Shown: piece after piece, positions 1,851 through 39,907 of the stretch | Numbering within the stretch: the first letter of the stretch is position 1 | Layout of the letters: each line of letters starts with the position of its first letter | Source of the DNA: Verrucomicrobiota bacterium | GTDB taxonomy: Bacteria > Verrucomicrobiota > Verrucomicrobiia > Opitutales > Seribacteraceae | Assembly (NCBI GenBank): GCA_027622665.1 | Contig: JAQBYT010000002.1 | Coordinates: 1 to 64,000, forward strand | Length of the DNA: 64,000 nt | Direction: 5' to 3' | The notes under the pieces: model-generated | The model's input: the letters and a program-made list of their open reading frames with translations, nothing else | What the model was told of the DNA's origin: nothing | The model's database searches: none | Position numbers and translations under genes: made by a program

Positions 1851-3277
1851 TGAAAACTCAACAAATGCTAGAGCGGCGTGAATTCTTGAACTGGGGGGTC
1901 CGTGGAATTGGTGCAACAGCCCTCACCAGCCTGTTGATCCATGATCACGCCCATGCCGCGACCGCTAGCCTCTTGCCGCATTATGCGCCCAAGGCAAAAC
2001 GGGCCATTCATATTTGCCTGGTTGGAGGTCTCAGCCATGTGGATTCCTTTGACCCTAAACCGGAGCTGACCAAGAATCACGGCAAGGCAGCCAATCTTTC
2101 CGAGAAGCCTGATATTTTCTTTGGCAAGGTCGGGCCGCTGCGTGGGGCCGATTGGGAGTTCAAGCCCCGAGGACGGAGTGGACTCATGATTTCCGAGATG
2201 TTTCCGAACATTGCCCGGCATGCCGATGATTTGACCGTGATCCGGTCAATGGTGTCCCAATCCGCCAACCATACACCGGCATTGTTTTTCCAGAACAGTG
2301 GATTCGAGTTCAATGGTTACCCATCCATGGGGAGCTGGGTTGCATTTGGGCTTGGGGCTGAATCAGAATCCCTTCCTGCCTACGTGGTGCTTCCGGATGG
2401 ACGTGGATCCCCGAACGGAGGTTCCTCCAATTGGACCAACGGCTTCCTTCCTTCACAGTTCCAAGGGACTCCCTTTAATGGTGGGGACCGCCCAATCCAA
2501 GATATTTTCCCGGCAAAAGAAATTTCCGATGCGGAAGAGGAGGCTTCACTCAAGCTGTTGAGCCGCCTCAACCAAAAGCATCAGGAGCGTACTCGCCTGG
2601 AAGATATGCTGTCCGCTCGCATCCGTAGTTATGAATTGGCAGCCCGCATGCAGCTTTCCGTGCCGGAAGTGACTGACGTGAGTGCCGAAAGCGATGCCAC
2701 CAGAGAAATGTATGGTATTGGGAAGAATCCAACCGACGATTGTGGCAGACGATGTCTTCTTGGACGTCGATTACTGGAGAAGGGGGTGCGTTTTGTGCAG
2801 GTTTTTTCCGGAGGCCCAATTGCAGGTAGTCCGCGCAAGAGTTGGGATGCGCATGAGAACGTAAAGCAAAACCATGGGGCCGAGGCGGCCCGGATTGACA
2901 AGCCGGTTGCGGCTCTGCTGGCAGATTTGAAGCAGCGCGGCATGCTCGATGAAACCCTTGTCCTCTTTACTACCGAGTTCGGGCGTACGCCCTTTGCCCA
3001 GTCGGGTCGGGGCACGGTGGGTCCCGGCCGGGATCACAACAAGGGCGGTTTTTCCATTTGGGCGGCCGGTGGTGGCTTGAAACCGGGCATTGCGTTCGGG
3101 GCCACCGATGAAATTGGCTGGAGGGCTTCGGACAACCCGGTTTCCTGGCACGATTTTCATGCCACGGTCCTTCACCTTCTGGGGATGAATCATGAACGCC
3201 TGACTTTCTACCATAATGGTATCGAGCGCAGGCTTACCAACGTGCACGGTGACCCGGTGAAGGGCATCCTGGCTTAA
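1847..3277 (+). CDS. DUF1501 domain protein (Tat signal)
   Basis: RREFL leader, GGLSHVDSFDPKP, WDAH, TEFGRTP, GRDH; overlaps upstream stop. Confidence 0.92.
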   Translation: MMKTQQMLERREFLNWGVRGIGATALTSLLIHDHAHAATASLLPHYAPKAKRAIHICLVGGLSHVDSFDPKPELTKNHGKAANLSEKPDIFFGKVGPLRGADWEFKPRGRSGLMISEMFPNIARHADDLTVIRSMVSQSANHTPALFFQNSGFEFNGYPSMGSWVAFGLGAESESLPAYVVLPDGRGSPNGGSSNWTNGFLPSQFQGTPFNGGDRPIQDIFPAKEISDAEEEASLKLLSRLNQKHQERTRLEDMLSARIRSYELAARMQLSVPEVTDVSAESDATREMYGIGKNPTDDCGRRCLLGRRLLEKGVRFVQVFSGGPIAGSPRKSWDAHENVKQNHGAEAARIDKPVAALLADLKQRGMLDETLVLFTTEFGRTPFAQSGRGTVGPGRDHNKGGFSIWAAGGGLKPGIAFGATDEIGWRASDNPVSWHDFHATVLHLLGMNHERLTFYHNGIERRLTNVHGDPVKGILA

Positions 3278-3336
3278 GATTCTGTCCCTAAGTATGGTGC
3301 GGTTGGGTACGAAACGAAACGCACTCCTGAACTGTT

Positions 3337-3684
3337 TTGGCACCGTCAACAATGAGTTGTGTGGCAGTTGACGCAGCCCAACCACAAGCAAAGGGCAAGG
3401 AAACTAGGCCGAACATCATCCTGATCATGGCGGACGATATCGGGTATGCGTGCTATGTGGCCTATGGCGGAACATCCTATGAAACTCCGCGCATTGATCG
3501 TCTGGCGGCTAACGGCATACGCTTCATGCATTGCTATTCCCAGCCGGTTTCCACCCCGAGCCGTATCAAGATTATGACTGGCGTCAGCAATGTGCGTAAC
3601 TATGCCGACTTCTCGATTCTCAAGAAAAACCAGCAGACCTTTGCCCACATGCCGAAGGGTGCCGGGGTCACCTTTGCCGCTTGA
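3337..3684 (+). pseudogene. sulfatase N-terminal fragment
   Basis: RPNIILIMADDIG...TPRIDRLA...STPSR; stops after ~115 aa. Confidence 0.8.
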
Positions 3685-3925
3685 AATCGGTCGGGGTACC
3701 AAAGAGTTCCAGTTGCGAAAGAGAAAAACCAGGAGGTCGGTTGAAATCCCTAAAGGTATTACTGTTTGGATTGAAACAGGAATAGATAACAATCCGAAAC
3801 CAAGGGCAGGCCATGGGCGGCACGGTGAAGTCAGCTTTTTTCACGGTGTCGTTTTTTAACTTTGCCCCGAGTTTTTTCAGATCTGCGGGATCGACTGAGC
3901 CGCCCATCGTGTCTGAGGTGAACGA

Positions 3926-3973
3926 AGTGAACGCCGCATTCAGCGGCTTGTCCGCTGCAATGCTTTGTTATAC
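3926..3973 (-). repeat. attC site (short)
   Basis: Minus strand GTATAAC-AAAGC-ATT(G)CAGCGG-ACAAG-CCGCTGAAT-GCGGC-GTTCACT; hairpin with an extrahelical base. Confidence 0.85.
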
Positions 3974-5707
3974 CTGTCGTACCGCCTGAACAAGTTCAAG
4001 AAGCCTAGTTGGAATATCATCATCACTGAGATGCTGTCCGATAGCATTGGCAAATATAGGCTTACTCATTTTCTTGCCTCGCTGATTTAGGCTTCTAATT
4101 TCTTTTGAGAATTTTTTCCCATTCTCTGCACATTCAGCACGTAATTTTCGAATTGATTCTACAGACCATGTTTCTGGTATTTCTTTCTCATATGACGTGA
4201 GATACGCCGCCCAAGCCGTATAAAGCGCTTCATCAGTAAATGCGTCTTCAAACTCTTTAGTTCCCACAATATACTTTCTGTCATCTGGGATTTGAAGTCG
4301 GTCTATCAATTCTGTTAATTCTGGCGATGCGTCATTATCAAAAAGTAAATGCACTTTCTCTGGGCTATGTATTTCAAGAAGGGCCTTTGCGAAACCTGGT
4401 ATATTTGGTATGCCCTTGCAATTAATTATTTTTACAAGTGACGATGAAAGCGTCTCGTCAAATGCTTTAATGAAATATGACGGGATAAACTGTTCTTCAG
4501 TTTCTCCTTCGACAATAATTATGTGCTTGGCGAAAAACAAGTATGTATTCTCAATTCCTAACGTCCTGAGAATCCTATCCGCGTATTCAGGGTCAGATTT
4601 TATGTACTTAATCTTGCTATGATTATTGTTATTTTCTAAGAGCCTCAACTTTTTCGGCTTAACGGAATTAATTATAAATGGCGAATGCGTTGTTAATATA
4701 ACCTGACTACCGTTTGCGGCAAATCCTTTAACCGTATCTAAAAACTCTAGTTGTGCTTTGACATGAAGGTGGGTATCTGGCTCATCCAACAAATAGATGG
4801 TGGAAGCATCATGTTCTATTAACGATTGCTCCTTTTTATACTCCAAAAGAGCCATTGTGATACGCCTCTTGGTGCCATCCCCTTTTTTATCAATAGACAC
4901 CTCTTTGCCATGTTCCAAAAACTTGACTTTTGCATCAATATTCAAATCTTTCTTCTGATATATTGGCTCAATCTTTACCTCAGTTAAGTCTTTTAAAAAC
5001 AACTGCATTCTACTTAGAACTCCAGTATCTTTAATGCTCTGCTCAACGTGAGCCGAATAACTGTTTATTTTATCTTTTACAAACTCCTCAATGGTTTGGT
5101 CTTTAGTGATTTTTTCATCCCATATTTCACTTTGCTTACCTTTTAAGAAGACCTCTTTGAAAAATCAAGAAACATTCTCAAAGTGCCTACCATCAAGCTG
5201 AATATTATTAAACGAAGGGAATGAAGCACCGGCTATTTCAATATCAGTACCATCAAATTTTTCTAATATGGAAGTTTTAAGATTGGTAACATTGGAATTA
5301 GATCTAACGGTTAAGCCGACCGTTTTAGCTGTTTGCCTGACTTTCTCTTGCTCGCCAATATCATCCAAGTTCAGATTTTCATCTGTAAGCCAATTTCTTA
5401 TTTTTTCGATATATTCTTCTGTTGGGGTTGCAGTTAGGTTAGCTTCGATAATAGCGTCTTCATTTAGGTCATAGACTTTTCCAAACTTAAACTCCTCAGT
5501 ACCTAAACATATTTTTATTTGGGTACGGTCATGATTGAAGTCGTCTTTCTCAACTTTTCTTCCTTGTGTTACCACCTTCAATCATTCAATTAATGAAGAT
5601 TTTCCCGCATCGTTTTCGCCTACAATCACCGTCAAGTCATCTTCGAATCTTACTTCAAAACCCAGTAAGCATCTAAAGCCATCCACAGTTAAATCTTTAA
5701 TCTTCAT
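3968..5707 (-). pseudogene. OLD/AAA_15-family ATP-dependent nuclease (ABC ATPase + Toprim), two in-frame TGA stops
   Basis: One 580-codon frame: MKIKDLTVDGFRC..IVGENDAGKSS, LLDEPDTHLH, TTHSP, IIVEGETE, FDND; TGA at 5582-5584 and 5165-5167. Confidence 0.88.
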
Positions 5708-5732
5708 AAGTCACATCCCTGCATGAATTGAG

Positions 5733-5802
5733 GTATAACGTCGAGGTGTATCACGGAGTGAAGCGTAGCGTAACGGAGTTGAATACCACCGACTGGTTAT
5801 GC
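5733..5802 (-). repeat. attC site
   Basis: GCATAAC-CAGTCGGTGGTATTCA...TGATACACCTCGAC-GTTATAC. Confidence 0.9.
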
Positions 5803-6465
5803 CTTCTCCCATGTTGTTTCGGTTAAGTCTTTTTTGTCACAAACGCTGACGAAGAAGCTCTCATCGCGATGACTCTTCTTCTCCTCGGCGTAATAAAGCC
5901 TGATGTATGGAAATCTATTCTTTTCCTTAAAATGGCAACATATCTGTGGCCACTCCCAATACTCATCGGCTTCCCATCTAATTCTATCGATGCTGCTGTA
6001 AGCGATTCTTCCGATGAGGTGAGTCATAACTGCGTCATCATCCCCCCTGTCACAATAAACCCATGTGTCTGCCTCTTTTCTTATGAATACAGGCCCTGCT
6101 ACGCCGTCTAAACGGAACTCTAAATAGTCTCTGTGGTAATCGATTAATGCCGCAATCGTGTAAGGGGAGTCTTCCCTGCTGTGCTGCTCATCTGTATTCG
6201 GCATTTTCCTGAGGACATCACGAAGTATAAACTCCCCTAGATGTGAATTGAAGTCCTGCCGCTCCGCAAAATCTTTGATTTCATTAAAAAGCTTAGTCGC
6301 GTGGTCAAAGCTTTCGATGGCTGATTCTCTTAATTCTTTTTCACTAGGCTTAATCTTCCTGTAGACTCTAAAGAGCAAGAAGAGGATGGGTGCGCCAATA
6401 AACAATGAAAGGAGTGACAAGAATCCTTCATTTTCATTCGACCACTGGATGATGCTTTCGATCAT
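5797..6465 (-). CDS. cassette-encoded hypothetical protein with N-terminal TM helix
   Basis: 222-aa ORF filling the cassette; stop lies in R''. Confidence 0.8.
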   Translation of the reverse strand: MIESIIQWSNENEGFLSLLSLFIGAPILFLLFRVYRKIKPSEKELRESAIESFDHATKLFNEIKDFAERQDFNSHLGEFILRDVLRKMPNTDEQHSREDSPYTIAALIDYHRDYLEFRLDGVAGPVFIRKEADTWVYCDRGDDDAVMTHLIGRIAYSSIDRIRWEADEYWEWPQICCHFKEKNRFPYIRLYYAEEKKSHRDESFFVSVCDKKDLTETTWEKA

Positions 6466-6473
6466 TTAATTCT

Positions 6474-6540
6474 GCATAACGTAGAAGGTAGGCATAGAGT
6501 AGCGCCAGCGAAATCTATTGTCTATCCTGACTGGATCTAC
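6474..6540 (-). repeat. attC site with non-canonical R'' GTAGATC
   Basis: GTAGATC-CAGTCAGGATAGACAATAGA...TCTATGCCTACCTTCTAC-GTTATGC. Confidence 0.85.
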
Positions 6541-7028
6541 CCTTCATTTGGTCGAGTGGTTAAGTATTGTTTCCAGTCGTTAGATTCTGCCATCGCTTTT
6601 ATTTCTGAGTTTCTCTGCTGTAGAAATGATTTCATGTATCTGGTTAAGAATAAATTTTCAGCGAGACGCCCTAATATTCCAAGTGGAGCCTCGAACTCGA
6701 ATCGATCAGACATGATCGTATGATTCTCTTGGGTTTGAAATGTGTGTGTATGTCTCAACTTAGAGAATGCTCCCGAAATCATTTCGTCTTCAAATTCTTT
6801 TGGTTTATTCAAATGTGTCATTTTCACAGTGAGCTTCTGCTTGACCCCAAAGTGTGTAGCTTCCCAAGTTACCGTTTCATTTTCCTCCATCAGTCCGCTG
6901 GTCCTTCCTGCCACAGCTCGTTCTTTCGATTGGGAAGTAGAAGCGGTGTGCGCATCGACGCTCCTAGCGAGGTCAAAAACTCGCTCAATTGGAGCCTTAA
7001 TGGAAGTTGTGAGTTCAATGACGGGCAT
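6537..7028 (-). CDS. SRPBCC (START-like) family protein
   Basis: IELTTSIKAPIERVFDLARSVDAH...GAFSKLRHTHTF...FEAPLGILG. Confidence 0.88.
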   Translation of the reverse strand: MPVIELTTSIKAPIERVFDLARSVDAHTASTSQSKERAVAGRTSGLMEENETVTWEATHFGVKQKLTVKMTHLNKPKEFEDEMISGAFSKLRHTHTFQTQENHTIMSDRFEFEAPLGILGRLAENLFLTRYMKSFLQQRNSEIKAMAESNDWKQYLTTRPNEG

Positions 7029-7037
7029 TTTCTTTCT

Positions 7038-7093
7038 GTAGATCGTTTAAGTGTGCCGGGGCGTTAGCCGTTGCCACAACTGACTTGTTCGGT
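7038..7093 (-). repeat. attC site with non-canonical R' GATCTAC
   Basis: ACCGAAC-AAGTCAGTTGTGGCAACGGCTAACGCCCCGGCACACTTAAAC-GATCTAC. Confidence 0.85.
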
Positions 7094-8020
7094 GGTTAGT
7101 TTGTCGATATAGCCGAGCCTTTCGACAATGAAATCGGCTCCAGTTGGTATCCAGCTACGCAGTTCTTCGCTACCTAAATGGTTTACGATGTTAATTTCAT
7201 TTATAAGATTAAAAACGTTCGTAAAATCAACTAAGCCTCCAAGGACTGCCTCGGTCTCGAAACGTGGTGATAAGAAAGTGTCAATGTCTCGATAATTCGA
7301 CTTTATCCGTTTTCGGTATAGCAGACAAAGCCATGAAGTCTTTCCTAAGGCTGAAGACACTCTCTCCCAGTCTTCATATCTAAACGATTTTTTCAGCTTC
7401 TTTCCGTCCTTGGTGCGAATCTTGAGATCTGGCTTCTTATCTTCAAGATGCATCTTCCTTGTGGATCGGAAGAAACTTCTTAAATGACGCTTCACTTCCT
7501 CGATGTCTGGACCGTTCCACCGTGATGGATGAAAATCTTGGATCGTTGATGATATCCCTTGGGTCTTGAGATCTTTAAGGCCTCCATCAATGACGACATT
7601 TAGCTCGCCAAGCAAAGCCCCATGACTTGCTAAATCCGAAACTTTTTTCCTTACTGCTGCGTGTGATCTTTCAGTAAACCCTAAAGCTGAGAAGGAAGCT
7701 AATGTCGAATTGAACGCTGCGTAATAAGACTGAGGGAAAGCCCATTGAGCCACAAAGCCTGATCCGGGTCCTGAGAAATTATTCGATGTCGAACGCAAGA
7801 GTCGCTCGGTATTCCATGAATTAATTAAGAGCTGCCGAATGCGGGGGATATCTAATTGATTCTTTGATCGAATGCGCAGCAATGCTCTGTAGCGACTCAA
7901 CGAGTCGGTTTGGCTATAACAATACTCTGCGTATAGACCAAGTGCCTTGAATTGATTGGCCGTAGTCAGAGCTGCCCAGTCATCTTCTGTCCGGTCTGGT
8001 TCTCTTCGAGGGATAAGCAT
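7064..8020 (-). CDS. cassette protein, HEPN-like
   Basis: SYYAAF...SH...LYRKRIKSNY resembles HEPN YY..H..Rx4Y pattern. Confidence 0.55.
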   Translation of the reverse strand: MLIPRREPDRTEDDWAALTTANQFKALGLYAEYCYSQTDSLSRYRALLRIRSKNQLDIPRIRQLLINSWNTERLLRSTSNNFSGPGSGFVAQWAFPQSYYAAFNSTLASFSALGFTERSHAAVRKKVSDLASHGALLGELNVVIDGGLKDLKTQGISSTIQDFHPSRWNGPDIEEVKRHLRSFFRSTRKMHLEDKKPDLKIRTKDGKKLKKSFRYEDWERVSSALGKTSWLCLLYRKRIKSNYRDIDTFLSPRFETEAVLGGLVDFTNVFNLINEINIVNHLGSEELRSWIPTGADFIVERLGYIDKLTTEQVSCGNG

Positions 8021-8050
8021 TATTTATCTATTTTACCGAACAATGTCGTC

Positions 8051-8655
8051 TCAATACGGGGGGGGTACCTGCAGCGGGCTCTTTGTTCGCTCTTTTGCAT
8101 CGCACTTGTAGATATCCACCCATTCATTATCCTTGCCAGTCATCGACCCTTGAATGGCCCAGGACTTGGGGTCTCTTCCGGGCATGTCCGGGGCAGTTGT
8201 TAGAGTAAAGTGGGTCAGGCTCGCAGGATTTTTGAGTTGAACAGCCAAATAGTAGGGTGCCTTGAGAGTTGGTCCTCCTTTGCCGCCGTCCTTGAACCCG
8301 ACGTACCACTTGCGAGTCTCAGGCTTGTTGAGAAATAAGCTGCATGCCGGGGCACCCTGCCAGCTTTGGAACGGATGGGTTTGGTGCGGTGGGCTGCGGG
8401 TGGTGAAACGGGTGACATCTTCATGTCAATCCATCCGAAATTCAGGGGGCGCATTTCGTCTTCACTTAGTGCCTGCCCATAATTGACTCCCTCCTTTTCT
8501 ACTATTGCATTAATCGGGTCAGTGAGGTCACCACCGAGCAAGCTGCTATTACCAGTATCGAGTTTGAGAGCAGCATTTGTACTGGGCCCAGATAGGATAA
8601 TACAGGTAAGTGCGAAAACGGGAATCAAGTGGGTTGAAGGCATGGTTGAATACAT
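8051..8655 (-). pseudogene. frameshifted, truncated exported protein (discoidin-like)
   Basis: Signal peptide, then pieces in three frames incl. RDPKSWAIQGS. Confidence 0.55.
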
Positions 8656-8812
8656 GTTGAATAAGTGAGGAAACCTTTAGGTAGAGCCGGTATTTTGGAA
8701 AACCGGTTAATTATTCCGTGAGGTGTTTTGAATCGTGGAATCATGGCTTTCGGGATTGGAGTCGGGCACTTTTGGGAATGTTCCCGTAACCCATGGATGC
8801 AAACATAATTCC

Positions 8813-9781
8813 TTAGCGAATCACTTCGCCTTGTACTCCCACCGTTGCGGATGCCGCAGTTGCATTGCCCAGATTCTTGAAGTCCTTGAAGCTCCAGACA
8901 AGTTTCTTGTCTTTGGTGACCTCAATCAGTTGCGGGTTGTCTGGACCGGCGTGACAATTTCCTACAACGATATTTCCGTTCGGCAACAGTTCCAAGGAGG
9001 TAACCCAAGCAAGAGTGACGCCGGGAATATCGTTTTGCTTGAGGTGCCAGACGATTACCTTCTTGGGAGTCACTTCGAGAACCGAGTGACCTGATCCAGT
9101 GGCAATCAAGGTGTTCCCGCTTGGCAGACGAATGGCGTTGAATACTTGGTTGCCCCAACCTTTCGGGCCATGGCCTCCTTTGCGTGGTTTGCCGAACAGC
9201 GAAACTTGGTAATCCCAGACGATCCTTCCGGTGGGTGAGTATTCCGTGACTCGTCCTTCACCTTCATGACAAAGAAGGTAGTTTCCGTTCTTTAGTTTGT
9301 GCCCCTGCCGAACGTCGCGATGGGCGTTGAGTTGTTTGACCTTGTACTTCAGTTCATGTTGAATTTCGCCCGCCTTGTTGATCTCGATGATCCGGCCGAT
9401 GCCGTTTTCCACGACCATGGTGTTGCCGTTTTCAAGTCTTTGAAAGGCGTGTACCTCGAGCCTCTTTCCTTCGTTCCCATTCCTGTTTTGGGCATCGTAA
9501 CTCCAGACCGTTTTGCCTTTCGGGTTGACCTCAATCAGTTTCTTCCAACCGGACTGGCAAAGAACGTTGCCGTTCTGTAATTGTTGAATGCGGTGAACCG
9601 AGCCGGTCCTGAATGTCAAGAGGACATTGCCCACTGCGTCGTACTTGACGACCTGGCCCTTGTCGCTTGCGAATACGCCGTGCCTTGTTGATGATACCTC
9701 TGCCTTTTCCGCTGCATTTGCAATACACGCAAGCAGCAAGAAACCCTGAAGGGCGGTAAGAATTGTTTTGTAGGTTCGCAT
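8813..9781 (-). CDS. exported beta-propeller repeat protein (PQQ-like)
   Basis: Signal peptide; repeated LxNGNxL...IEV...VW blades. Confidence 0.8.
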   Translation of the reverse strand: MRTYKTILTALQGFLLLACIANAAEKAEVSSTRHGVFASDKGQVVKYDAVGNVLLTFRTGSVHRIQQLQNGNVLCQSGWKKLIEVNPKGKTVWSYDAQNRNGNEGKRLEVHAFQRLENGNTMVVENGIGRIIEINKAGEIQHELKYKVKQLNAHRDVRQGHKLKNGNYLLCHEGEGRVTEYSPTGRIVWDYQVSLFGKPRKGGHGPKGWGNQVFNAIRLPSGNTLIATGSGHSVLEVTPKKVIVWHLKQNDIPGVTLAWVTSLELLPNGNIVVGNCHAGPDNPQLIEVTKDKKLVWSFKDFKNLGNATAASATVGVQGEVIR

Positions 9782-30290: not shown

Positions 30291-31015
30291 TCGTATAAAA
30301 CTTTGTTGGACTTGCCGGTGACCTATGGGGAAAAGTAAACGATTGCCGGTGGCTGAACGCTGTCCGGCGCACTCCATTTGAGCGCGGGCGAGCTATTCAA
30401 CGTACATTTCCCCTTGATCAGATGATGTGCAATGGCTGAATTTTCACTTGTCTGCTCCAGCGAGTGCACACCGCTGCATGCACGCGAAAAGGGCGTGTTT
30501 CGAAAGCGAGTATTTTCGTTGAGCAGGCGCATGGTTACGGAGGATCGTGGTTGCGAATAGGAGGGAGCTCACGCAGCTGTTCCATACGGCCGGTCTTACA
30601 ACGCCTGCACGCACACAGGTCGATGGCGTAGACGCGGGCGATGCGTTCGACGGGTGTTTCGTCGATGAGTTCGGGCGTGGGCTGTGCGATCAGTTGACGG
30701 ATAAGTGGGATGTTGGCTTTACGTACGGCGTTGCCCAAAAAACCGTAGTGGCGGATCCGCGTGAAGCCGTTGGGCAGGACGTGCATAAAGAACCGACGCA
30801 GGAACTCTGCACCATCAAGGCTGAGCGTTGTTTTCCTGGCCGCGTTCTTTGGGTCGCGGCAGGCGAAGGTGACGCCGTGTTCGTCTGCGTGATTGATGCG
30901 GGCGTTGGAGATGCCAACCCGGTGTGTATAGCGTCCGAGGTATTGCAACACCTGCTCGGGGCCGCCAAAGGGGCGCTTGCCGAAAACCACCCAGGGCTTT
31001 TTGTAGAGCGGATCC
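30291..31015 (-). mobile_element. IS91-family (Y2 transposase) 3' remnant with probable ori end
   Basis: PWVVFGKRPFGGPEQVLQYLGRYTHR..EFLRRFFMHVLP..RIRHYG..CxxC; downstream TCCCCATAG..GTCCAACAAAGTTTTATAC. Confidence 0.85.
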
Positions 31016-31034
31016 AGCGACTTGTTATGCTTTC

Positions 31035-31472
31035 CTAGTCGGAAATATGGCGCATGTGAGCGTTGTCAGCATAGTTTGGGCCTCTGACGAACAATCGGTC
31101 GGCCTCCTGATCATACTCGAGCTGACTACTCGATAATAGGAAGTGTGCTCCTTGCTCATCGCGAGTTTTAGTAAGTGTGAGCAGGAAGCTCCCATCATTC
31201 TTTTTCGTGAGCTGCCATGTGCCGTGATCGCGATACTCGAAGTCACTTGTCAGAACGAATTTGTAGCTGCCATCAGGGGAAAACTGATACGTCTTTGTTT
31301 CCTGGCTTGGCAGACCCTCTGATATGATAAACCGCCAGCGTCCAACAACTAGGACATTGGGAAGGCTTTGCTTAAGATCACTTGCCTCCCCTGCACGTGG
31401 CGGGACAGCCTTCTCCGTGCAAGAGATCGCAAGTAATCCGGCAAGCAATAGTGGCAGGGTGTGTTTATGCAT
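31035..31472 (-). CDS. cassette lipoprotein (lipocalin-like)
   Basis: LAISC lipobox, VVGRW..FSPDGSY..GTW; ATG within R' GTTATGC; truncated attC at 31010-31030. Confidence 0.75.
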   Translation of the reverse strand: MHKHTLPLLLAGLLAISCTEKAVPPRAGEASDLKQSLPNVLVVGRWRFIISEGLPSQETKTYQFSPDGSYKFVLTSDFEYRDHGTWQLTKKNDGSFLLTLTKTRDEQGAHFLLSSSQLEYDQEADRLFVRGPNYADNAHMRHISD

Positions 31473-31597
31473 AACGTCATAGCGCATGCACCCCTACCAG
31501 CGAGGGCGGGTGTTGAACGCGGGGTTAAGGTTGTATCTACGAGAACTCATCGAAACAAAACGGCTGGTAGGGGTTGTCGTGGCGCGTCTTGTTCGCT
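31469..31597 (-). repeat. attC site
   Basis: AGCGAAC-AAGACGCGCCA..ACCCCTACCAGC...GCTGGTAGGGGT..TGCGCTATGAC-GTTATGC. Confidence 0.9.
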
Positions 31598-31599
31598 TT

Positions 31600-31737
31600 C
31601 TTGTTTAGGCACACCGGCCCACTGCCATCCTGTCGTCGAGTCGCTTGGAAGCCCCTTGTAGATAGCAACGGCTTTCTGAACTCCTCACTATCCTCAATGG
31701 ACCGATGGTTTTGAACGCGGACTTTTGTGAGTTTCAT
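31600..31737 (-). pseudogene. N-terminal remnant of AAA/OLD-type ATPase cassette
   Basis: MKLTKVRVQNHRSIEDS with GGAG RBS, then abrupt loss of similarity. Confidence 0.6.
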
Positions 31738-31856
31738 TGAATCTCCATTCTTTGGCGAAATAGTAATTGATGCAACTGAAGTTCGGCGCTTGTCAGATAG
31801 GCGTTTAGAAAGAGGCCTCTCTTGAAAGCAAACTTCACCCTAGTCCCTTCGTCATG

Positions 31857-31932
31857 GCATAACGTCAAAATTCATCTGTAAGGTTCATGAGCGAAGCGAA
31901 TGGTTCTCATCAGGTGAAACTTTTTGTTATAG
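31857..31932 (-). repeat. attC site
   Basis: CTATAAC-AAAAAGTTTCACCTG...CAGATGAATTTTGAC-GTTATGC. Confidence 0.88.
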
Positions 31933-31955
31933 TTTTTTTAATACCTTTATCTAAA

Positions 31956-32600
31956 CTACTTATTTGTAGAGTTATACGTAACGTCATTGTACAAGTTATT
32001 CAGCATGTCGTTATTGTCTTTAGTATAGGAGTTAAAGATTTTTTCAGATATATTATCCGTCTCGTAAAGCATCTTATAAGCACTATATGAATAAAAGCAT
32101 TTGTCCGTTGTGTCCATGATCATTGCTTTACTTCGGGTAAACTTTTTTCCTTTCAGTTGAAGTAAAACATATAAAACAGTTCGCTCTTTAAGTTTTTTAA
32201 ATTCTTTTTTGATGATTTTAGGATTTTCAGTAGCCATTGTCGGAAGCATCAGCTCAACAAACAACTTTTCTAAATATGCTTGTCGCAGTTGTTCGTTTGC
32301 TAGTTCACCATTAAGTGCCGGCTCATAAAGTTGATAGTCTATTCGAGTTGTGTTGGATCTTGGCCAAAGAGGGTAAAACTGGACATATCCACCGCCCTTT
32401 GCTGTCATTTCGTCATACTCAGAATGGTCCGTTTCGAAATAGTGGTTATTATAGGAAAACATACCGTTAGGAGACGTATACGAACCACGACATGTACCTG
32501 TTTTTAGTGAATCTAAGTCGGGTTGAACCGGGAACGGCGTGGCAGTTTTACAGCCACTAAATAATGTTAATAATATCACTACAATTATTGCTTTGATCAT
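31956..32600 (-). CDS. AT-rich cassette lipoprotein
   Basis: LFSGC lipobox; R' GTTATAG matches R'' CTATAAC. Confidence 0.8.
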   Translation of the reverse strand: MIKAIIVVILLTLFSGCKTATPFPVQPDLDSLKTGTCRGSYTSPNGMFSYNNHYFETDHSEYDEMTAKGGGYVQFYPLWPRSNTTRIDYQLYEPALNGELANEQLRQAYLEKLFVELMLPTMATENPKIIKKEFKKLKERTVLYVLLQLKGKKFTRSKAMIMDTTDKCFYSYSAYKMLYETDNISEKIFNSYTKDNNDMLNNLYNDVTYNSTNK

Positions 32601-32666
32601 TTATTTTAAATTTTTCTTTTTTTGAATTGTGAATTGCTTTTTCGTGAGTTTTTATTTTCCTCTCAA

Positions 32667-32737
32667 CTATAACGTAGAGGCTACTCAGCTCTGAAGCGCG
32701 GAGCGCGAAAGGGCTTGAGTATACTGACTGGATCTAC
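32667..32737 (-). repeat. attC site with R'' GTAGATC
   Basis: GTAGATC-CAGTCAGTATACTCAAGC...GCTGAGTAGCCTCTAC-GTTATAG. Confidence 0.85.
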
Positions 32738-32804
32738 GCTTCATTTGGTTGAGTGGTTGTGGTTGTGGTTGGTCTTTGGTCCATTCGTCTTCTTTTCATT
32801 CTTT

Positions 32805-32996
32805 CTAGGAAAATCCAATCGTTCCCCCAAGGCCAAAGATCACACCAATTACGTATCCGATCAGATAACCGGAAAATCCTGAATCTATCGTGCTTCCAAG
32901 CATGATTGCTCCGAGAATTCCAAGTGCCTGCGAGATGATGAGTAAAATGGTGAGATTCGCGCGGATTCGTTCGAAGACTGTTTTTCTCTTTTCCAT
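32805..32996 (-). CDS. small two-TM membrane protein (cassette)
   Basis: 63-aa hydrophobic ORF starting just inside cassette boundary. Confidence 0.6.
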   Translation of the reverse strand: MEKRKTVFERIRANLTILLIISQALGILGAIMLGSTIDSGFSGYLIGYVIGVIFGLGGTIGFS

Positions 32997-33004
32997 TTTA
33001 TTCT

Positions 33005-33073
33005 GTAGATCACCGAAGTCACCGGATTTGAAGAGGGAAGGGATGAGAATTCCGGTGCACTGTTTTGTTATTT
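33005..33073 (-). repeat. attC site with R' GATCTAC
   Basis: AAATAAC-AAAACAGT(G)CACCGGA...TCCGGTGACTTCGGT-GATCTAC. Confidence 0.88.
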
Positions 33074-33153
33074 ATAAGAAGACGAAACTGAAATCATTCA
33101 GAATAATCGTCTTTATTTAGATTAAGAATTCAATTCCGCTCGTTTGTTATGCC

Positions 33154-33609
33154 TCACTTGAGTTTCCAAGTCACAGTCTTGAGTCCGTAGTAAACGCTGT
33201 CTTTCTCAATGTTGGTACCTGGAGGCATCGGCATACCCTGCGGAACGCCATCGGTGCCTTGCTTGTCCTAGTCCCAGATGAACATTGGCCATCGCATTTT
33301 TACCACCTTGCCAGTGACAACAATGACTTGGCCGACTTGGTCTAAGGGAATTGCCACCTTGTCGCCTAATAGAAAGATGGTTTCGTCGCCAACTTTCACA
33401 GCGGGATCGTTTTCCTTGATGTGAGGCGAACTCGAGGCAATACCTTCGAATTGATGTCGCGAGCCAACCAATCGCTCGAGTGTGGGGTTGCGAACATTAA
33501 CCGGGGCCGCTTCGGCTGCGCCAGAACCAGAAGAACTATCCGATGAACAGGAGGCTAGGAACAACACAATAACTGTGGACAGTATTCTCATAGGGATCTC
33601 GGTAGTCAT
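33154..33609 (-). pseudogene. cassette lipoprotein with in-frame TAG
   Basis: LASC lipobox; TAG at 33268; frame continues to TGA just before R'' GCATAAC (33146-33152, attC truncated). Confidence 0.72.
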
Positions 33610-33730
33610 AACGTCAAAGTGAGGCACGGCTGACCGGGAGCGTGCATCCGATGCGGGACAGGGGTTGCAATTACGGTGCATCTTTCGAGTCGGGGCGTGT
33701 CAGCCGTTGCTCTCCATGCACTTGTTTGAC
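33606..33730 (-). repeat. attC site
   Basis: GTCAAAC-AAGTGCATGGAGAGCAACGGCTGAC...GTCAGCCGTGCCTCACTTTGAC-GTTATGA. Confidence 0.85.
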
Positions 33731-34758
33731 CTTTGGGGTTCAACCTGCGCAATATCAGCAAACCACGCCTGTAGCTGAGCAAGATCCTCTGTTCGTGGTG
33801 GCTCAATATACTCGCATGCCTCGCCGTACAAGGAGGTGAGGCTCTTCCATTCAGTCGTCCGGCGAGGCCAACGGGCGACCGACGAATCCCAAAAATCAGT
33901 CTGTACAAGGCTGTGATGATGCGGAAAATACTCACGCCAGTTATCAACCAAATGATCATAGTCAGCCTTATCGATAATCTCGACATGGTTTATATCGTAA
34001 CTCGGAGACTCGTTCCAGCTGTCCAGAATGAGTTTCCGAGCGCGGAAATCCGTCCTGGGGCCGCCGTAGCCGAAAATCGTCAAGTGGAACGCAGAGGCTA
34101 ACGCGTTCGTCGTGGTGTTCCAATCGCGAATAATTATCTCATCACGGGTATAGTCCTTGTCGTCATCGGGAAAGAATAACCCGCTGCGCTCCAAAGCGCG
34201 GGAACATGTCGGACATCGTTCGCCGATCACTCCCATCACATCATGCTCTGGACACGTCGCAAAGTTTACTGACCCATGAAGAAATCGGATGTCGGGAAGT
34301 TCAGCTACATCTCGGTTCCTACGATGCGCTTCCATGAGAAATGGATCCCAATTGAATGTGGCAATGAGGTCCTTTCCTCTCAATCCAAGGACGAGATAAT
34401 CATAGATAGTTGCGCGGTCCGGGAGCTGTAGTCCTGAAAAATACTCTTCTATCTTCGCCTCGACAGCCCTCAGCTCGGCCTCATATGTACCAGTCGAGCG
34501 AATCCACGAAAACTGTGTTTCAAAGTTGCCTTGAGGCGGAGAAGCATTGGCGACCAAATCCGTTCAACACTCGCCTACGATCGTTGGAAGGTCGTTCATT
34601 CCGGGCAGAATGTTCCCATTACGGTCGCCTTCCGGAAAACTAGCCATGCTCGCACCGGCGCCAAGTAACACAACATGCGGTTTTGGTGGAGCAAAGGGCT
34701 TACCGACAAGGTGCTCGCGTGTACCTGTTGCGGGCGTTTGATGATCCGCTATCGGCAT
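33700..34758 (-). pseudogene. SIR2-like (SIR2_2) protein with one in-frame TGA
   Basis: VVLLGAGAS, TFNWD, FLHGS, two CxxH/CxxC, IFGYG in one frame; TGA at 34564-34566. Confidence 0.78.
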
Positions 34759-34768
34759 TACTTCTTTG

Positions 34769-34844
34769 GTCCAACGCTAAGCTGTGGGACTGGTTTGCGA
34801 GTGCTAGCGAGCAATACCAGTTCTACAAGAGCGTCTTGTTGGCT
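34769..34844 (-). repeat. attC site
   Basis: AGCCAAC-AAGACGCTCTTGTAGAACTGGT...ACCAGTCCCACAGCTTAGC-GTTGGAC. Confidence 0.9.
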
Positions 34845-35497
34845 CATTTTTTGAAGTTGATTCTAAGATCATCATGTGGGATGTCGCGCGCCTTGACCAA
34901 CTCTGAGTAGCGAAGGCCGCGCGTAAGTGATGAAATAAGTGAATCCCCAGCTGCCCGGAGGATACAATCATTATATAGAGTTTGAGAGTCGGTGAAGTAG
35001 AGCTCGATGTGATTCAGTACGCCTCGCAAAGACTCAAGTGCAGTCTCTATCTCTTCGCGCGAAGGTCCAGCGCATGATACGACCGATGTTTCTAGCTTTG
35101 TCGCGAGGTCGAGGTGTGCGATAGCCTTATTCCTCCGAGTGCGAACATTCTCTGTATGGCTCTCGAAAATATCAATCAATGGTTCCAACTCACTCGCAAG
35201 GGTCGCCTCGTTGACCTTTCGCACCTCAACCAAGAGTCTTCGAAGAGTGAGATTTTTGCGTGCACCGGATCCGGCAGGATCCCCGAGCCGACTTATCGAA
35301 AGTTGTATGTCGTTAAGCATCATGCCTTGAATCATTGAAAAGGCAGTAGATGCGGAACGATTCAATATGCTGACTCGGTGTTCATCGGTTCCAAACAATT
35401 GGCGATACAAAATCCACCGTCCATGGGTCCACATGACTTCGTCTTTGATGGATCTCCAGATTTCGCTAAGTTCGCTAGGGATTGTCTTTGTAGTCAT
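34844..35497 (-). CDS. AbiU2-like HEPN domain protein
   Basis: WILYRQLF, ISRLGDP..NLTL, RNKAIAH (Rx4-6H). Confidence 0.75.
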   Translation of the reverse strand: MTTKTIPSELSEIWRSIKDEVMWTHGRWILYRQLFGTDEHRVSILNRSASTAFSMIQGMMLNDIQLSISRLGDPAGSGARKNLTLRRLLVEVRKVNEATLASELEPLIDIFESHTENVRTRRNKAIAHLDLATKLETSVVSCAGPSREEIETALESLRGVLNHIELYFTDSQTLYNDCILRAAGDSLISSLTRGLRYSELVKARDIPHDDLRINFKK

Positions 35498-35502
35498 TGT
35501 CT

Positions 35503-36957: not shown

Positions 36958-37234
36958 GCTCATGACTTCAAGCCATCTTTACGGGTTTAATATTCGACAT
37001 AAATCCGTCCTGGAGGATCCTGAGTTGGTGCCAAGTCCTTCATGAAACACCAACTTGAAATAATAAAATTTGCATTTCAAAAGGGGCTTTTTGAAAATTC
37101 AATTGCTTATCACTAAAATTAAATTTCCCCCTTTTAACTACTATTGAATTATTCTTTTTTACATGTAAATAATGGATACTATAAGTTCTGCAAAATGAAA
37201 TGAACGAATCCAAAGCATTGAATGTCTAATCAAC

Positions 37235-37855
37235 TTGATGACTGAAAAATCGAATTCTACAATTGAAAGGCTTCGCAAGCCAATTTCACGACTAATCGCA
37301 TTCATGCTGATTCTTATGGCTCTGCTTACAGTGCCAATAAATTTTGAAGACGGAGTTCATGAAGCTTTGGAGATTTTCGGCTATTTTTTACTGCTTACGG
37401 CAGGACTTGGTAGAATTTGGTGCTCTATTTACATTGCTGGCAGGAAGGATAAAATATTATGCACAGATGGTCCGTATTCAATTTGCAGGAATCCACTTTA
37501 CCTTTTTTCCTTTATAGGGGTCATTGGTGCATTTTTGGCATTTCAAAGTATTTTGCTCACAGTCATGGCATCTGCTATCTACTTATTGTATTATCGATTC
37601 GTTATTAAGAGTGAAGAAATAAGGCTGCTCGATATTTTTAAAGTTTCGTTTTCAGAATATATCAGCACTACCCCCCGATTTTTCCCAAGATTTTCTTCAT
37701 ATCAGAGTAGTGTAGCCGAAAGAATTACCTCAACAAAAGTTATCGAAAGGGGCTTGAGAGAAGCCGTTTGGTTTTTTATAGCTATAGCATTGATTGACAC
37801 AATTGAAGTCATTCACCGCCAAGGTTTCATGATATTGGCGACACTGCCATTCTAA
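37235..37855 (+). CDS. isoprenylcysteine carboxylmethyltransferase/PEMT family protein
   Basis: GPYSICRNPLY, EE..L..F...Y..TPRFFP. Confidence 0.88.
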   Translation: MMTEKSNSTIERLRKPISRLIAFMLILMALLTVPINFEDGVHEALEIFGYFLLLTAGLGRIWCSIYIAGRKDKILCTDGPYSICRNPLYLFSFIGVIGAFLAFQSILLTVMASAIYLLYYRFVIKSEEIRLLDIFKVSFSEYISTTPRFFPRFSSYQSSVAERITSTKVIERGLREAVWFFIAIALIDTIEVIHRQGFMILATLPF

Positions 37856-37857
37856 AG

Positions 37858-37938
37858 GCAGAACAAGGCAGTGGAGGACAACTCCGTTACGCGCTCCGCA
37901 CTCCACGCTCCACTCCATGCCTACCTTTGACGTTATGT
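37858..37938 (+). repeat. attC site
   Basis: GCAGAAC-AAGGC...CCTTTGAC-GTTATGT; R'' matches GTTCTGC at 37185. Confidence 0.85.
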
Positions 37939-37989
37939 AAAAGTAAAAAATGAATTGTCTTATTTATGTTATTGTGTAAGTTCCTACAC

Positions 37990-38190
37990 ATGCCTACCAA
38001 TTTAGCAATAGACGATAATTTACTTGTAAAAGCCTTGAAGGTCAGTGGTCTTAAAACGAAAAAAGATACTGTAAATCAAGCCCTTAAGGAATTTGTTCTG
38101 AAAAGAGAGCAGAAGAAGATTTTAGACTTTTTTGGAGTTGTTGATTATTATGATGATTATGACCCGAAGGCAGATCGAAGGAAATCGTAA
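37990..38190 (+). CDS. vapB: VapB-family antitoxin
   Basis: MPTNLAIDDNLL..GLKTKKDTVNQAL; TGTGTA/TACACA palindrome upstream. Confidence 0.88.
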   Translation: MPTNLAIDDNLLVKALKVSGLKTKKDTVNQALKEFVLKREQKKILDFFGVVDYYDDYDPKADRRKS

Positions 38191-38588
38191 TGGTTATTGT
38201 AGATTCTGATGTGTGGTCAGAGGTATTTCGATCTAGGGCAGGGAAAGCGTCCAAGTATTTCGATAAGTTAGCGAAGTTAATTGAGGATGAAGACGTTGTT
38301 CTTTTGGGAGCGATACGCCAAGAGGTTTTATCAGGTATAAAGTCTAAAGAACAATTTGATTCCCTAAAAAAGGTTTTGAGATCATTTCCAGATGTTTCGT
38401 TACCTGAAGCAATTTATGAGATGGCAGCATCATTTTATAATATTTGCCGAAGTAATGGAGTTCCAGGATCGTATGCCGATTTCTTGATATGTGCTTGTAG
38501 TGTGTTTTATAAATTAGAGATTTTATCGAATGATAGAGAATATATTCATTATTCAAAACATATTCCTATCAAGGTTTGTAAGCTATAG
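38190..38588 (+). CDS. vapC: VapC PIN-domain toxin
   Basis: VIVDSDVW, QEVLSG, DFLI, LSND. Confidence 0.9.
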   Translation: MVIVDSDVWSEVFRSRAGKASKYFDKLAKLIEDEDVVLLGAIRQEVLSGIKSKEQFDSLKKVLRSFPDVSLPEAIYEMAASFYNICRSNGVPGSYADFLICACSVFYKLEILSNDREYIHYSKHIPIKVCKL

Positions 38589-38594
38589 GAATCA

Positions 38595-38725
38595 GCATAA
38601 CAATTGGATGGAGGGTAATCCCCAACACGGTTTTAATTATATTGAAGTATTGGTTCCCTATTACAGTTTTTGAAGATTTGAAGCGATGGAGTAAAGTTGG
38701 GGATACCTCATCCTGTGCGTCAGGT
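38595..38725 (+). repeat. attC site (R' GTCAGGT)
   Basis: GCATAAC-AATTGGATG(G)AGGGTAATCCCCAAC...GTTGGGGATACCTCATCC-TGTGC-GTCAGGT. Confidence 0.85.
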
Positions 38726-38774
38726 ACGAAAAAAAGTTTACAATGTGCTACATTTTGCTACATATCTTTATTGC

Positions 38775-38993
38775 ATGAGCACCGTAATAAGAATTTCCGA
38801 TCACTTGGCAAAAGAAGCGAAGACCAGATCAAAGGTAGAGCACCGCTCGATGACTTCACAATTGGAGTATTGGGCGACCATCGGCAAAACCGCAGAAGAA
38901 AACCCTGATTTACCGTTCAGTTTCATCAAGGAAACACTTCTGGCGATCGAGGAAATGAAGGAATGCCCAAAGGAGGAATATACCTTTGGGTGA
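38775..38993 (+). CDS. ParD-like antitoxin
   Basis: VIRISDHL..RSMTSQLEYWATIGKTAEENPDLP. Confidence 0.85.
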   Translation: MSTVIRISDHLAKEAKTRSKVEHRSMTSQLEYWATIGKTAEENPDLPFSFIKETLLAIEEMKECPKEEYTFG

Positions 38994-39273
38994 AAGGAAG
39001 ATTTTTGTCTCATCTGCCTTCGGGCGAAAAATTAAAAAGCTGAAGAAGCGGGAAAAGAAGGAACTTGATGACGCGGTTCTAGATCTTTCGAACGATCCAA
39101 GTGTTGCAGAAGAGAAAGTTGGCGATCTAGCAGGAGTTTCGGTCTATAAGTTTAAGATCAATAAACAGTCGGTTCTATTGCCTTATGCATACGACGAGAA
39201 TGAAATTAACCTCCTGACATTTGGATGCCATGAGAACTTCTATCGGAATCTGAAAAAATACAAAAAAGCCTAA
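38986..39273 (+). CDS. RelE/ParE family toxin
   Basis: F.RKIKKL..GDLAGV.VYKF..GCHENFY. Confidence 0.85.
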   Translation: MGERKIFVSSAFGRKIKKLKKREKKELDDAVLDLSNDPSVAEEKVGDLAGVSVYKFKINKQSVLLPYAYDENEINLLTFGCHENFYRNLKKYKKA

Positions 39274-39322
39274 CCAGACGGAGAGAGCAAAACCGTTGGC
39301 GCACTCATCCTCCACATTATGC
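39268..39322 (+). repeat. degenerate attC site
   Basis: GCCTAAC-CAGACGGAG...CTCCAC-ATTATGC. Confidence 0.6.
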
Positions 39323-39344
39323 GAGGGAAAAGAATCAAACTATA

Positions 39345-39887
39345 AGAAGAAGAAAGAAACACACGCTCTCAATCCTTGGGACGATGCTGATTTTTGTGCT
39401 ACTGTCCGGACTGCTCGTCGGATGTATGACATACCGAAAATAACAGTGGTTCGGCGGTATGACCACGATTCAACTGGAGGATGGAACGAAGGTTGGCTTG
39501 TGGTTTGACCCTGCCGACCGTCGACCGGACATACCTCTATTGGGTCGTTATTCGGTCAGTACACCACCCTATGCGCTACAGATTTATTTTCCGGATTTCG
39601 ACCCCGCTTGGGAATCCGCTGAGATTGATGAAGTGATCGTAGCATACAATGACGGCACCACGGATAAGCGAACGGACGGTGGCGTCGTGTGGCGGATAAG
39701 AAGTAAAGAGATGACGCTATATAGAGGACCACTTAAAGACCTCGTGACGCGTCACGAAAGCGGCAACATCACTGTAACGGGTAGTATTTCGGCGAAAACT
39801 GGCAAGAAAACTGGCTTTTCCTTCTCGCACAAATTTGAGGCAGAGCCTAAGGATTCTGGGATCGCACCTTACTGGTCTGGTGGGTGA
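39345..39887 (+). pseudogene. cassette lipoprotein with in-frame TAA
   Basis: LLSGLLVGCMTYRK*QWFGGMTTIQ in frame with the 142-aa ORF. Confidence 0.65.
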
Positions 39888-39907
39888 AAAGGCAAGAAGG
39901 GTAGCCC

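Follow-up and report, generated by a model that had tools for sequence, protein, structure and literature searches.

Integron gene cassettes of Opitutales with a paired GAT/ATC core site

The DNA analyzed in this study, referred to as the window, is a stretch of 64,000 nucleotides from a Verrucomicrobiota bacterium of the order Opitutales (family Seribacteraceae; assembly GCA_027622665.1, contig JAQBYT010000002.1, positions 1 to 64,000). An array of four gene cassettes, here called A, the SRPBCC cassette, C and D, occupies positions 8040-3932 of its minus strand (Table 1). All four cassettes (4/4) start with a 7-mer that is the reverse complement of their own R'' box at 7/7 positions. Three of the pairs are of the GTT/AAC type: GTTCGGT (8041) with ACCGAAC (7093) in cassette A, GTTATGC (6480) with GCATAAC (5802) in cassette C and GTTATAC (5739) with GTATAAC (3973) in cassette D. 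The remaining cassette, second in the array, encodes a protein of the SRPBCC fold, with matches to Pfam families PF10604 and PF03364 above the cut-off. Its start reads GATCTAC (7044-7038) and its R'' box reads GTAGATC (6540-6534), which are exact reverse complements on the minus strand. With the G-C pair taken as given, the chance of six further complementary positions is, by simple arithmetic, about 1 in 4,096.

Table 1. Cassettes, attC sites and interrupted gene identified in the window.
Feature	Position	Strand	Remarks
Interrupted chromosomal gene, 5' part	8041..8655	minus	F5/8-type-C-like domain, weak Pfam matches; target G|TT has its G at 8041
Cassette A, 318-aa ORF (8020-7064)	7044..8040	minus	GTT/AAC core; no Pfam, NCBIfam or PADLOC family
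attC of cassette A, 56 bp	7038..7093	minus	R'' ACCGAAC, R' G|ATCTAC; bottom-strand T.T mismatch in the middle of the triplet
Core site R', G|ATCTAC	7038..7044	minus	G contributed by cassette A, ATCTAC by the SRPBCC cassette
SRPBCC gene cassette, 564 bp	6480..7043	minus	Bounded by the crossover G (7044, excluded) and the G of its attC (6480, included)
SRPBCC-family ORF, 163 aa	6537..7028	minus	TAG stop inside R'' (GTAGATC)
attC of SRPBCC cassette, 67 bp	6474..6540	minus	R'' GTAGATC, R' G|TTATGC; in-array bottom-strand A.A mismatch in the middle of the triplet; joint of run X17 at its crossover
Cassette C, 222-aa ORF (6465-5797)	5739..6479	minus	70-bp attC (5802-5733); GTT/AAC core; no family match
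Cassette D, OLD/GajA-like ATPase-TOPRIM nuclease gene	3932..5738	minus	48-bp attC (3973-3926); GTT/AAC core; stops break the gene in this assembly
Interrupted chromosomal gene, 3' part	3668..3931	minus	Starts with the TT of the target site
Second GAT cassette, separate array	32667..33011	minus	G|ATCTAC at 33011; attC (32737-32667) opens with GTAGATC

The attC of the SRPBCC cassette was read with GTAGATC as R'', followed by a 5-nt spacer, L'', L', another 5-nt spacer and the G. L'' has one extra, extrahelical base at position 4, and the L boxes pair at 6.5 of 7 positions. The conserved AAC/GTT triplet is absent, as R'' ends with ATC and the cassette starts with GAT. This departure is limited to position 2, while G1, T3 and their partners are kept. 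The bottom strand of the excised attC, rebuilt from the two cassette ends, forms a hairpin with an R stem of 7 bp (-9.2 kcal/mol), compared with -6.4 kcal/mol for the site in the array, where only the inner three-base box partly pairs around the central A.A mismatch. The site also matches covariance model R1, of which it was itself a seed site. The original prediction was correct in its coordinates and in that G|ATCTAC and GTAGATC are perfectly complementary, that the three neighbors have matched GTT/AAC cores and that excision would rebuild a fully paired attC with GAT/ATC. It did not include that both attC sites flanking the SRPBCC cassette are mismatched at the middle base, its own by A.A and the upstream one by T.T. 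Given that the first bases of a cassette complete the attC upstream of it, the core letter decides whether that junction is paired or mismatched. The SRPBCC unit has the properties of a gene cassette, which are a single ORF with an attC, a start 7-mer complementary to its own R'' and variable neighbors. Apart from the AAC/GTT triplet, all structural features tested were found in its GAT site, which very probably works like an attC.

Cassette D is an OLD/GajA-like anti-phage nuclease gene. A contig of the public run X6 has other letters at two of its stop codons, and the breaks may therefore occur only in this assembly or strain. This 37,958-nt contig spans the array with four differing letters, none of them in either core, and X6, being a possible source of the assembly, is not independent of it. 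The attC of cassette D (3926-3973, minus strand) is only 48 bp long, with 9 nt between the L boxes and a rebuilt fold of -14.4 kcal/mol; the minimum length of attC sites is about 55-57 bp. As contigs of runs X18 and X20 match positions 3930-3970 with other flanks, the 48-bp attC looks like a natural short family and not like a local deletion. The second GAT cassette of the window has ends similar to those of the SRPBCC cassette over 15-20 bases past the cores. It belongs to two more cassette-rich stretches, at 30500-35500 on the minus strand and 37185-39900 on the plus strand, which also contain toxin-antitoxin pairs and no integrase. Further attC pairs were found in contigs C26 and C38 of the same genome, in which a scan with model R2 for long attC sites revealed nothing new.

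Both flanks of the four-cassette array align to one paralogous gene on contig C51, contiguously over the junction, with 0 bases gained or lost and with the break at G|TT. The G + C content is 41% in the array vs. 54-55% in the flanks. A search of the host genome (93.5% complete) with profile TIGR02249 found no IntI above the cut-off, and the best match scored 105 bits vs. a cut-off of 265. This match is a short XerD-like fragment and was rejected as the cognate IntI. The intI and attI that stand beside the array of a complete integron are missing, and the array begins inside a chromosomal gene. It has instead the characters of a CALIN formed through attG: an attC cluster without intI, split GWT edges and no duplication or loss. 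This array without integrase, at a G|TT in a chromosomal gene, exemplifies the attG route described by Loot et al. (bioRxiv 10.1101/2022.09.11.507474).

Contigs of four of the 21 public runs listed were compared with positions 3000-9200. Only contigs joining across the array were counted, as array parts left uncovered in X17, X18 and X20 are uninformative. In X18 and X20, which come from two studies, exactly 4,109 bp are skipped, which corresponds to the empty site. An extra base at 8058 that causes a frameshift in the window is also missing from these two runs. The host-gene frameshifts, present in the window and absent from the empty-site contigs, appear to be decay after insertion. A further joint is represented in X17 by a single contig of 264 nt (depth 3.8), whose shorter side measures 123 nt. 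This joint skips 2,548 bp, placing the chromosomal TT right behind the G of the SRPBCC attC, and thereby lacks cassettes C and D. It may reflect either gain or loss of these two cassettes. The locus is a clean natural cassette insertion into a chromosomal gene, with empty, two- and four-cassette alleles in public seawater data.

Scans for SRPBCC homologs yielded 52 loci, 16 genomic and 36 metagenomic. One of them (L022) was identical to the window, and five more had DNA identities of 77-90%. R'' GTAGATC is kept in L023 and L038, whose downstream neighbors differ. The start GATCTAC is kept in L054, after three extra bases and with the attC past the contig end, and in L024, where the attC is lost. 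The start of L023 has one extra base, and both ends are lost in L006. Comparison of L023, L038, L054 and L024 shows that the neighbors of the SRPBCC cassette vary, differing in L023, L038 and L054, while close relatives keep GAT. Distant homologs with protein identities of 53-61%, such as L010 and L030, lie in what by eye are GTT-type cassettes. In 121 related genomes, the SRPBCC search found only two matches besides the own copy, with identities of 55-58%. Beside the SRPBCC homologs, small insertions or a deletion were observed exactly at the crossover (L023:586-593, L023:1146-1152 and L054:1421-1430), which may result from imprecise recombination, secondary use of GAT or assembly error. In L024, the SRPBCC copy is chromosomal and lacks an attC; in front of it lies a degenerate GTAGATC...GATCTAC stretch (L024:2934-3000), possibly what is left of an upstream GAT-type attC.

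Further signs of mobility came from other GAT cassettes. In genome G153, a metagenome-type assembly in which a duplicate could be an assembly error, an identical GAT cassette occurs twice in one array with different neighbors on both sides, and the divergence begins exactly at the crossovers. Natural breakpoints at the G|WT crossover were thus found at the X17 joint, the G153 duplicate and the attI junctions described below. Moreover, a GNAT cassette was identified in a GATCTAC/GTAGATC form, together with a 77% identical homolog bounded by GTTCTAC/GTAGAAC, which shows that the core letter can flip at both ends. Such a flip could arise through selection for pairing in the circle or through templated copying between the hairpin arms. 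The GNAT cassette is the only switch seen; comparison of 205 distinct cassettes all against all gave 10 homologous pairs and no full GAT-to-GTT switch among them.

To estimate how common the GAT core is, a covariance model was built from 11 sites with the middle base left unpaired. It had matches in 46 of 151 genomes (150 of the order and the own genome). Sixty regions from 26 matching genomes were rescanned with weight matrices in which six positions of each 7-base R box were ignored, and 248 sites were found vs. two in a reversed control (1.53 Mb). Their R'' triplets were AAC in 187, ATC in 43 and others in 18, and their R' triplets were GTT in 201, GAT in 37 and others in 10. Among the 174 intervals between adjacent sites, 37 in which fewer than three of the four outer bases matched were discarded. 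The remaining 137 confident cassettes comprised 109 GTT/AAC, 21 GAT/ATC (one cassette counted twice), four A/T-discordant and three other cassettes. GAT cassettes were found in 7 of 20 genomes and carried unrelated genes. When an A was present at either end of a cassette, both ends were changed in 21 of 25 cases. The ratio of 21/137 may be high, as the survey model was seeded partly on GAT sites (R'' ATC in 3/11 and R' GAT in 5/11 seed sites). The count was therefore repeated on integrase-chosen regions with a family-independent structural scan, whose controls gave 0, 2 and 1. In these Opitutales arrays, 5 of 30 cassettes were GAT/ATC and 25 were GTT/AAC, with 7 of 20 regions yielding cassettes. 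Thus, GAT/ATC accounts for about 15-18%, or about one in six, of Opitutales cassettes, a frequency and not a test because related genomes are not independent, and the integrons of this order use a GWT and not a GTT core.

The same scan detected no GAT/ATC among 66 cassettes (23/40 regions) of the class of the record titled Betaproteobacteria and none among 33 cassettes (7/20 regions) of the class of the record titled Pirellula, where one GAT/AAC pair was seen; the outside comparison covers these two classes, and the integrase-anchored sets are small. A looser scan (L score 6.0) was rejected for its noise, as the nulls rose to 3, 7 and 10, and the one GAT/ATC cassette of 169 in a gammaproteobacterial set was not attC-like by eye. 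The original prediction also proposed searching for GTAGATC-type hairpins elsewhere. A pattern scan of genome contigs, covering 80 of at least 121 loci, gave 82 matches, of which 61 without L-box pairing were discarded as chance. Among the matches listed, the other 21 (19 distinct) came without exception from records titled Verrucomicrobiota, with a pattern that is tuned to the attC family of the SRPBCC cassette and is no test of other phyla. Two cultured species, represented by Cerasicoccus arenae KCTC 12870 and Thalassobacterium maritimum SDUM461003, carry such GAT sites. A GATC methylation motif was rejected as a driver, as the fourth-base G was not enriched (92/187 AAC vs. 22/43 ATC sites). 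Eight R'' boxes in the 248-site tally read CAC (L162, L163 and L165), several of these matches have one extra R'' base, and they are possibly another small variant group. In a Planctomycete array (L450), three intervals pair GCTAGGC with GCCTAAC at the looser threshold, and their GCT starts are candidate junctions.

An attI motif, W-W-A-Y-A-C-T-G|W-T, was found upstream of intI at 28 of 58 loci as well as in 16 of another 20 regions, 11 of these 16 being new. Of the resulting 39 attI junctions, 32 had G|TT and seven had G|AT; for five of the latter, an R'' with the corresponding ATC was located. Across Opitutales, the ACTG|WT motif lies 170-1,060 bp upstream of intI (L179, L181-L183, L206-L270 and L464-L483). 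Compared with IntI1, the Opitutales IntI is extended at its N terminus by about 120 residues. Residues corresponding to K171, Y37, H281, T33 and G172 of IntI1 and the catalytic set are invariant in the 5/5 Opitutales integrases aligned, and no special residues were seen at their triplet-contacting positions. Among 33 sampled genomes of the same family as the window, none matched an Opitutales IntI query at 1e-90.

Previous results with IntI1, as given in the available text of Frumerie et al. (PMC2811028), showed that IntI cuts the bottom strand before the C and that the partners need to share only the first base. An engineered, paired GAT attC recombined with IntI1 at 1.9 times the wild-type level with attI1 and at 3.2 times with a GAT attI1 (their Table 4), while the uncompensated site, in which GTT faces ATC, dropped from 2.2e-3 to 6e-6 with attI1, about 370-fold lower. 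We consider it probable, at roughly 85%, that the SRPBCC unit is an ordinary integron cassette whose cleavage triplet has a naturally occurring A for T at its middle base, with compensation in R'', and that GAT is a common form of this triplet in Opitutales integrons. In the free circle, the bottom strand would fold with a fully paired 7-bp R box (ATC/GAT), IntI would make its usual cut in front of the C, and a match to the partner would be needed at the G alone. The GAT circle could then insert at attI, attC or a chromosomal GWT. After insertion at attI, the latter would read G|AT and would accept a next cassette of either kind, so that GAT and GTT cassettes would use the same arrays and integrases. 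The direct basis of this reading is the sequence anatomy, the frequency, the lineage contrast and the precise natural breakpoints; the activity of GAT sites with the integrase of the host lineage and the order of events, we infer. We conclude that the GAT core exists, recurs and is enriched in this lineage, and that it very probably functions.

The two kinds of cassette are randomly mixed within genomes. GAT-GAT junctions numbered 13 vs. 11.6 expected (P = 0.33), and segregation of GAT from GTT cassettes was rejected. As a result of the mixing, 50 of 222 attC sites (about 23%) are mismatched at the middle base in their arrays. By the IntI1 figures, such sites would be nearly silent, yet some of them seem to be used, judging from the G153 duplicate and perhaps from the X17 allele. 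Mixed junctions would mean either slowed shuffling, an integrase lineage that tolerates mismatches or the use of these sites as double-stranded GWT targets. Tentatively, the two-letter core may leave about one quarter of attC sites damped by their neighbors, which would be an order-dependent control of shuffling, or the integrase lineage may have evolved to tolerate the mismatch. One proposal is that the mismatch acts as a brake or lock: GAT circles would integrate well, but beside GTT cassettes both flanking attC sites would be mismatched and the cassette rarely excised, so that the W letter would set movable blocks. This proposal is compatible with the ordinary-cassette reading, as it concerns its consequence only. 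The low recombination of mismatched sites (PMC2811028) and their abundance in the arrays are consistent with it, and so is the closest integrase clade (L243, L213, L211, L186, L212 and L235), where the second cassette is GAT in five of the six visible arrays and the first in 1 of 11, as a lock on the first cassette would give; this excess is small and was noticed after the fact. However, GAT-GAT junctions are neither clustered nor avoided, the G153 duplicate most simply needs excision via a mismatched upstream attC, the X17 joint, if it reflects loss of cassettes C and D, used the mismatched SRPBCC attC, and the IntI1 figure covers only attC x attI recombination and the T.T type. We regard the brake as rather unlikely.

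The original prediction viewed the GAT site as a functional non-canonical attC class. What stands is that the site is real, recurrent and mobile, given its varied neighbors and the breakpoints at the crossover; what does not is a class of its own, since the two kinds of cassette are randomly interspersed and one cassette family is found with either core. GAT is a variant letter within one attC family. The prediction had named constant neighbors and homologs with GTT/AAC as evidence against it, of which the former was not observed and the latter applies to the distant homologs only. It had also placed the known tolerance of IntI at genomic attG sites, where GWT is indeed the consensus; this tolerance is not limited to attG, because the paired GAT attC is active with IntI1 (PMC2811028). 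A stronger form of the class idea, a separate GAT-specific system with a distinct integrase or attC class preferring GAT partners, is very improbable. Although GAT/ATC is concentrated in Verrucomicrobiota, whose IntI has the N-terminal extension, the arrays, attI motif, spacers and extrahelical bases are common to ATC and AAC sites, the mixing is random, the IntI1 key residues are invariant, and IntI1 itself accepts the paired site. Least probable is that the GAT core marks either a footprint of insertion at a chromosomal GAT or a site inactivated by mutation, for while the array sits at an attG and the genomic insertion consensus is GWT (bioRxiv 10.1101/2022.09.11.507474), such an insertion alters only the R' downstream of the last attC and leaves the cassette's own R'' ATC unexplained, both ends are changed together in most cassettes with an A, and the matched R'' and the GAT cassettes placed first at attI contradict it.

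GTT/AAC has been the one sequence constant of attC and is built into cassette-finding tools. Frumerie et al. (PMC2811028) refer to the 'absolute conservation' of GTT in all characterized integrons, Cury et al. describe GTT as the conserved triplet, and a 2026 paper (PMC12901181) gives RYYYAAC and GTTRRRY, in the text available for each. Natural GAT attC sites are absent from the available parts of PMC7439510, PMC8352920, PMC8876359, PMC3146285 and PMC8618304. Our literature search found no report of a natural GAT attC; older subscription papers and bioRxiv supplements lay outside its scope, and an earlier mention is possible. The function of a paired GAT site is biochemically unsurprising in view of the reported IntI1 data (PMC2811028); it is natural GAT cassettes for which we found no published report. 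Their frequency in Opitutales means that the position-2 tolerance known from the laboratory is used in nature, and it suggests that cassettes may be undercounted in Verrucomicrobiota. It also raises the question of how arrays are shuffled when nearly a quarter of their attC sites are centrally mismatched. If true, the concerted change of both ends would be a marker for templating of cassette ends when cassettes are made or corrected.

Similar to canonical attC sites (PMC12901181 and PMC4889954, as far as their available text describes them), the GAT site forms a bottom-strand hairpin of R'', 5 nt, L'' with the extra base at position 4, loop, L', 5 nt and R'. Similar to canonical cassettes, GAT cassettes have a stop codon in or near R'', a start complementary to R'' and, in relatives, arrays behind intI and attI. 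Different from canonical attC sites, their triplet is GAT/ATC, whereas all sites of the IntegronFinder seed alignment (96/96; supplementary file 7 of Cury et al.) have AAC/GTT. Models of this kind may miss GAT sites, as the original prediction proposed. The closest known counterpart is attCaadA7-GAT of Frumerie et al. (PMC2811028), which has the same compensated T2-to-A change and is reported to recombine with IntI1 at or above the wild-type level; unlike this laboratory construct, the GAT sites of Opitutales are natural and frequent. The locus also resembles the attG insertions, SALINs and CALINs of Loot et al. (bioRxiv 10.1101/2022.09.11.507474), whose available text describes cassettes at chromosomal GWT sites with no integrase nearby and a disrupted gene. 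In that work, however, GWT is the genomic target, whereas here GAT is in the cassette's own attC. Beyond this likeness, a natural four-cassette insertion is seen here together with its empty and two-cassette alleles in public runs.
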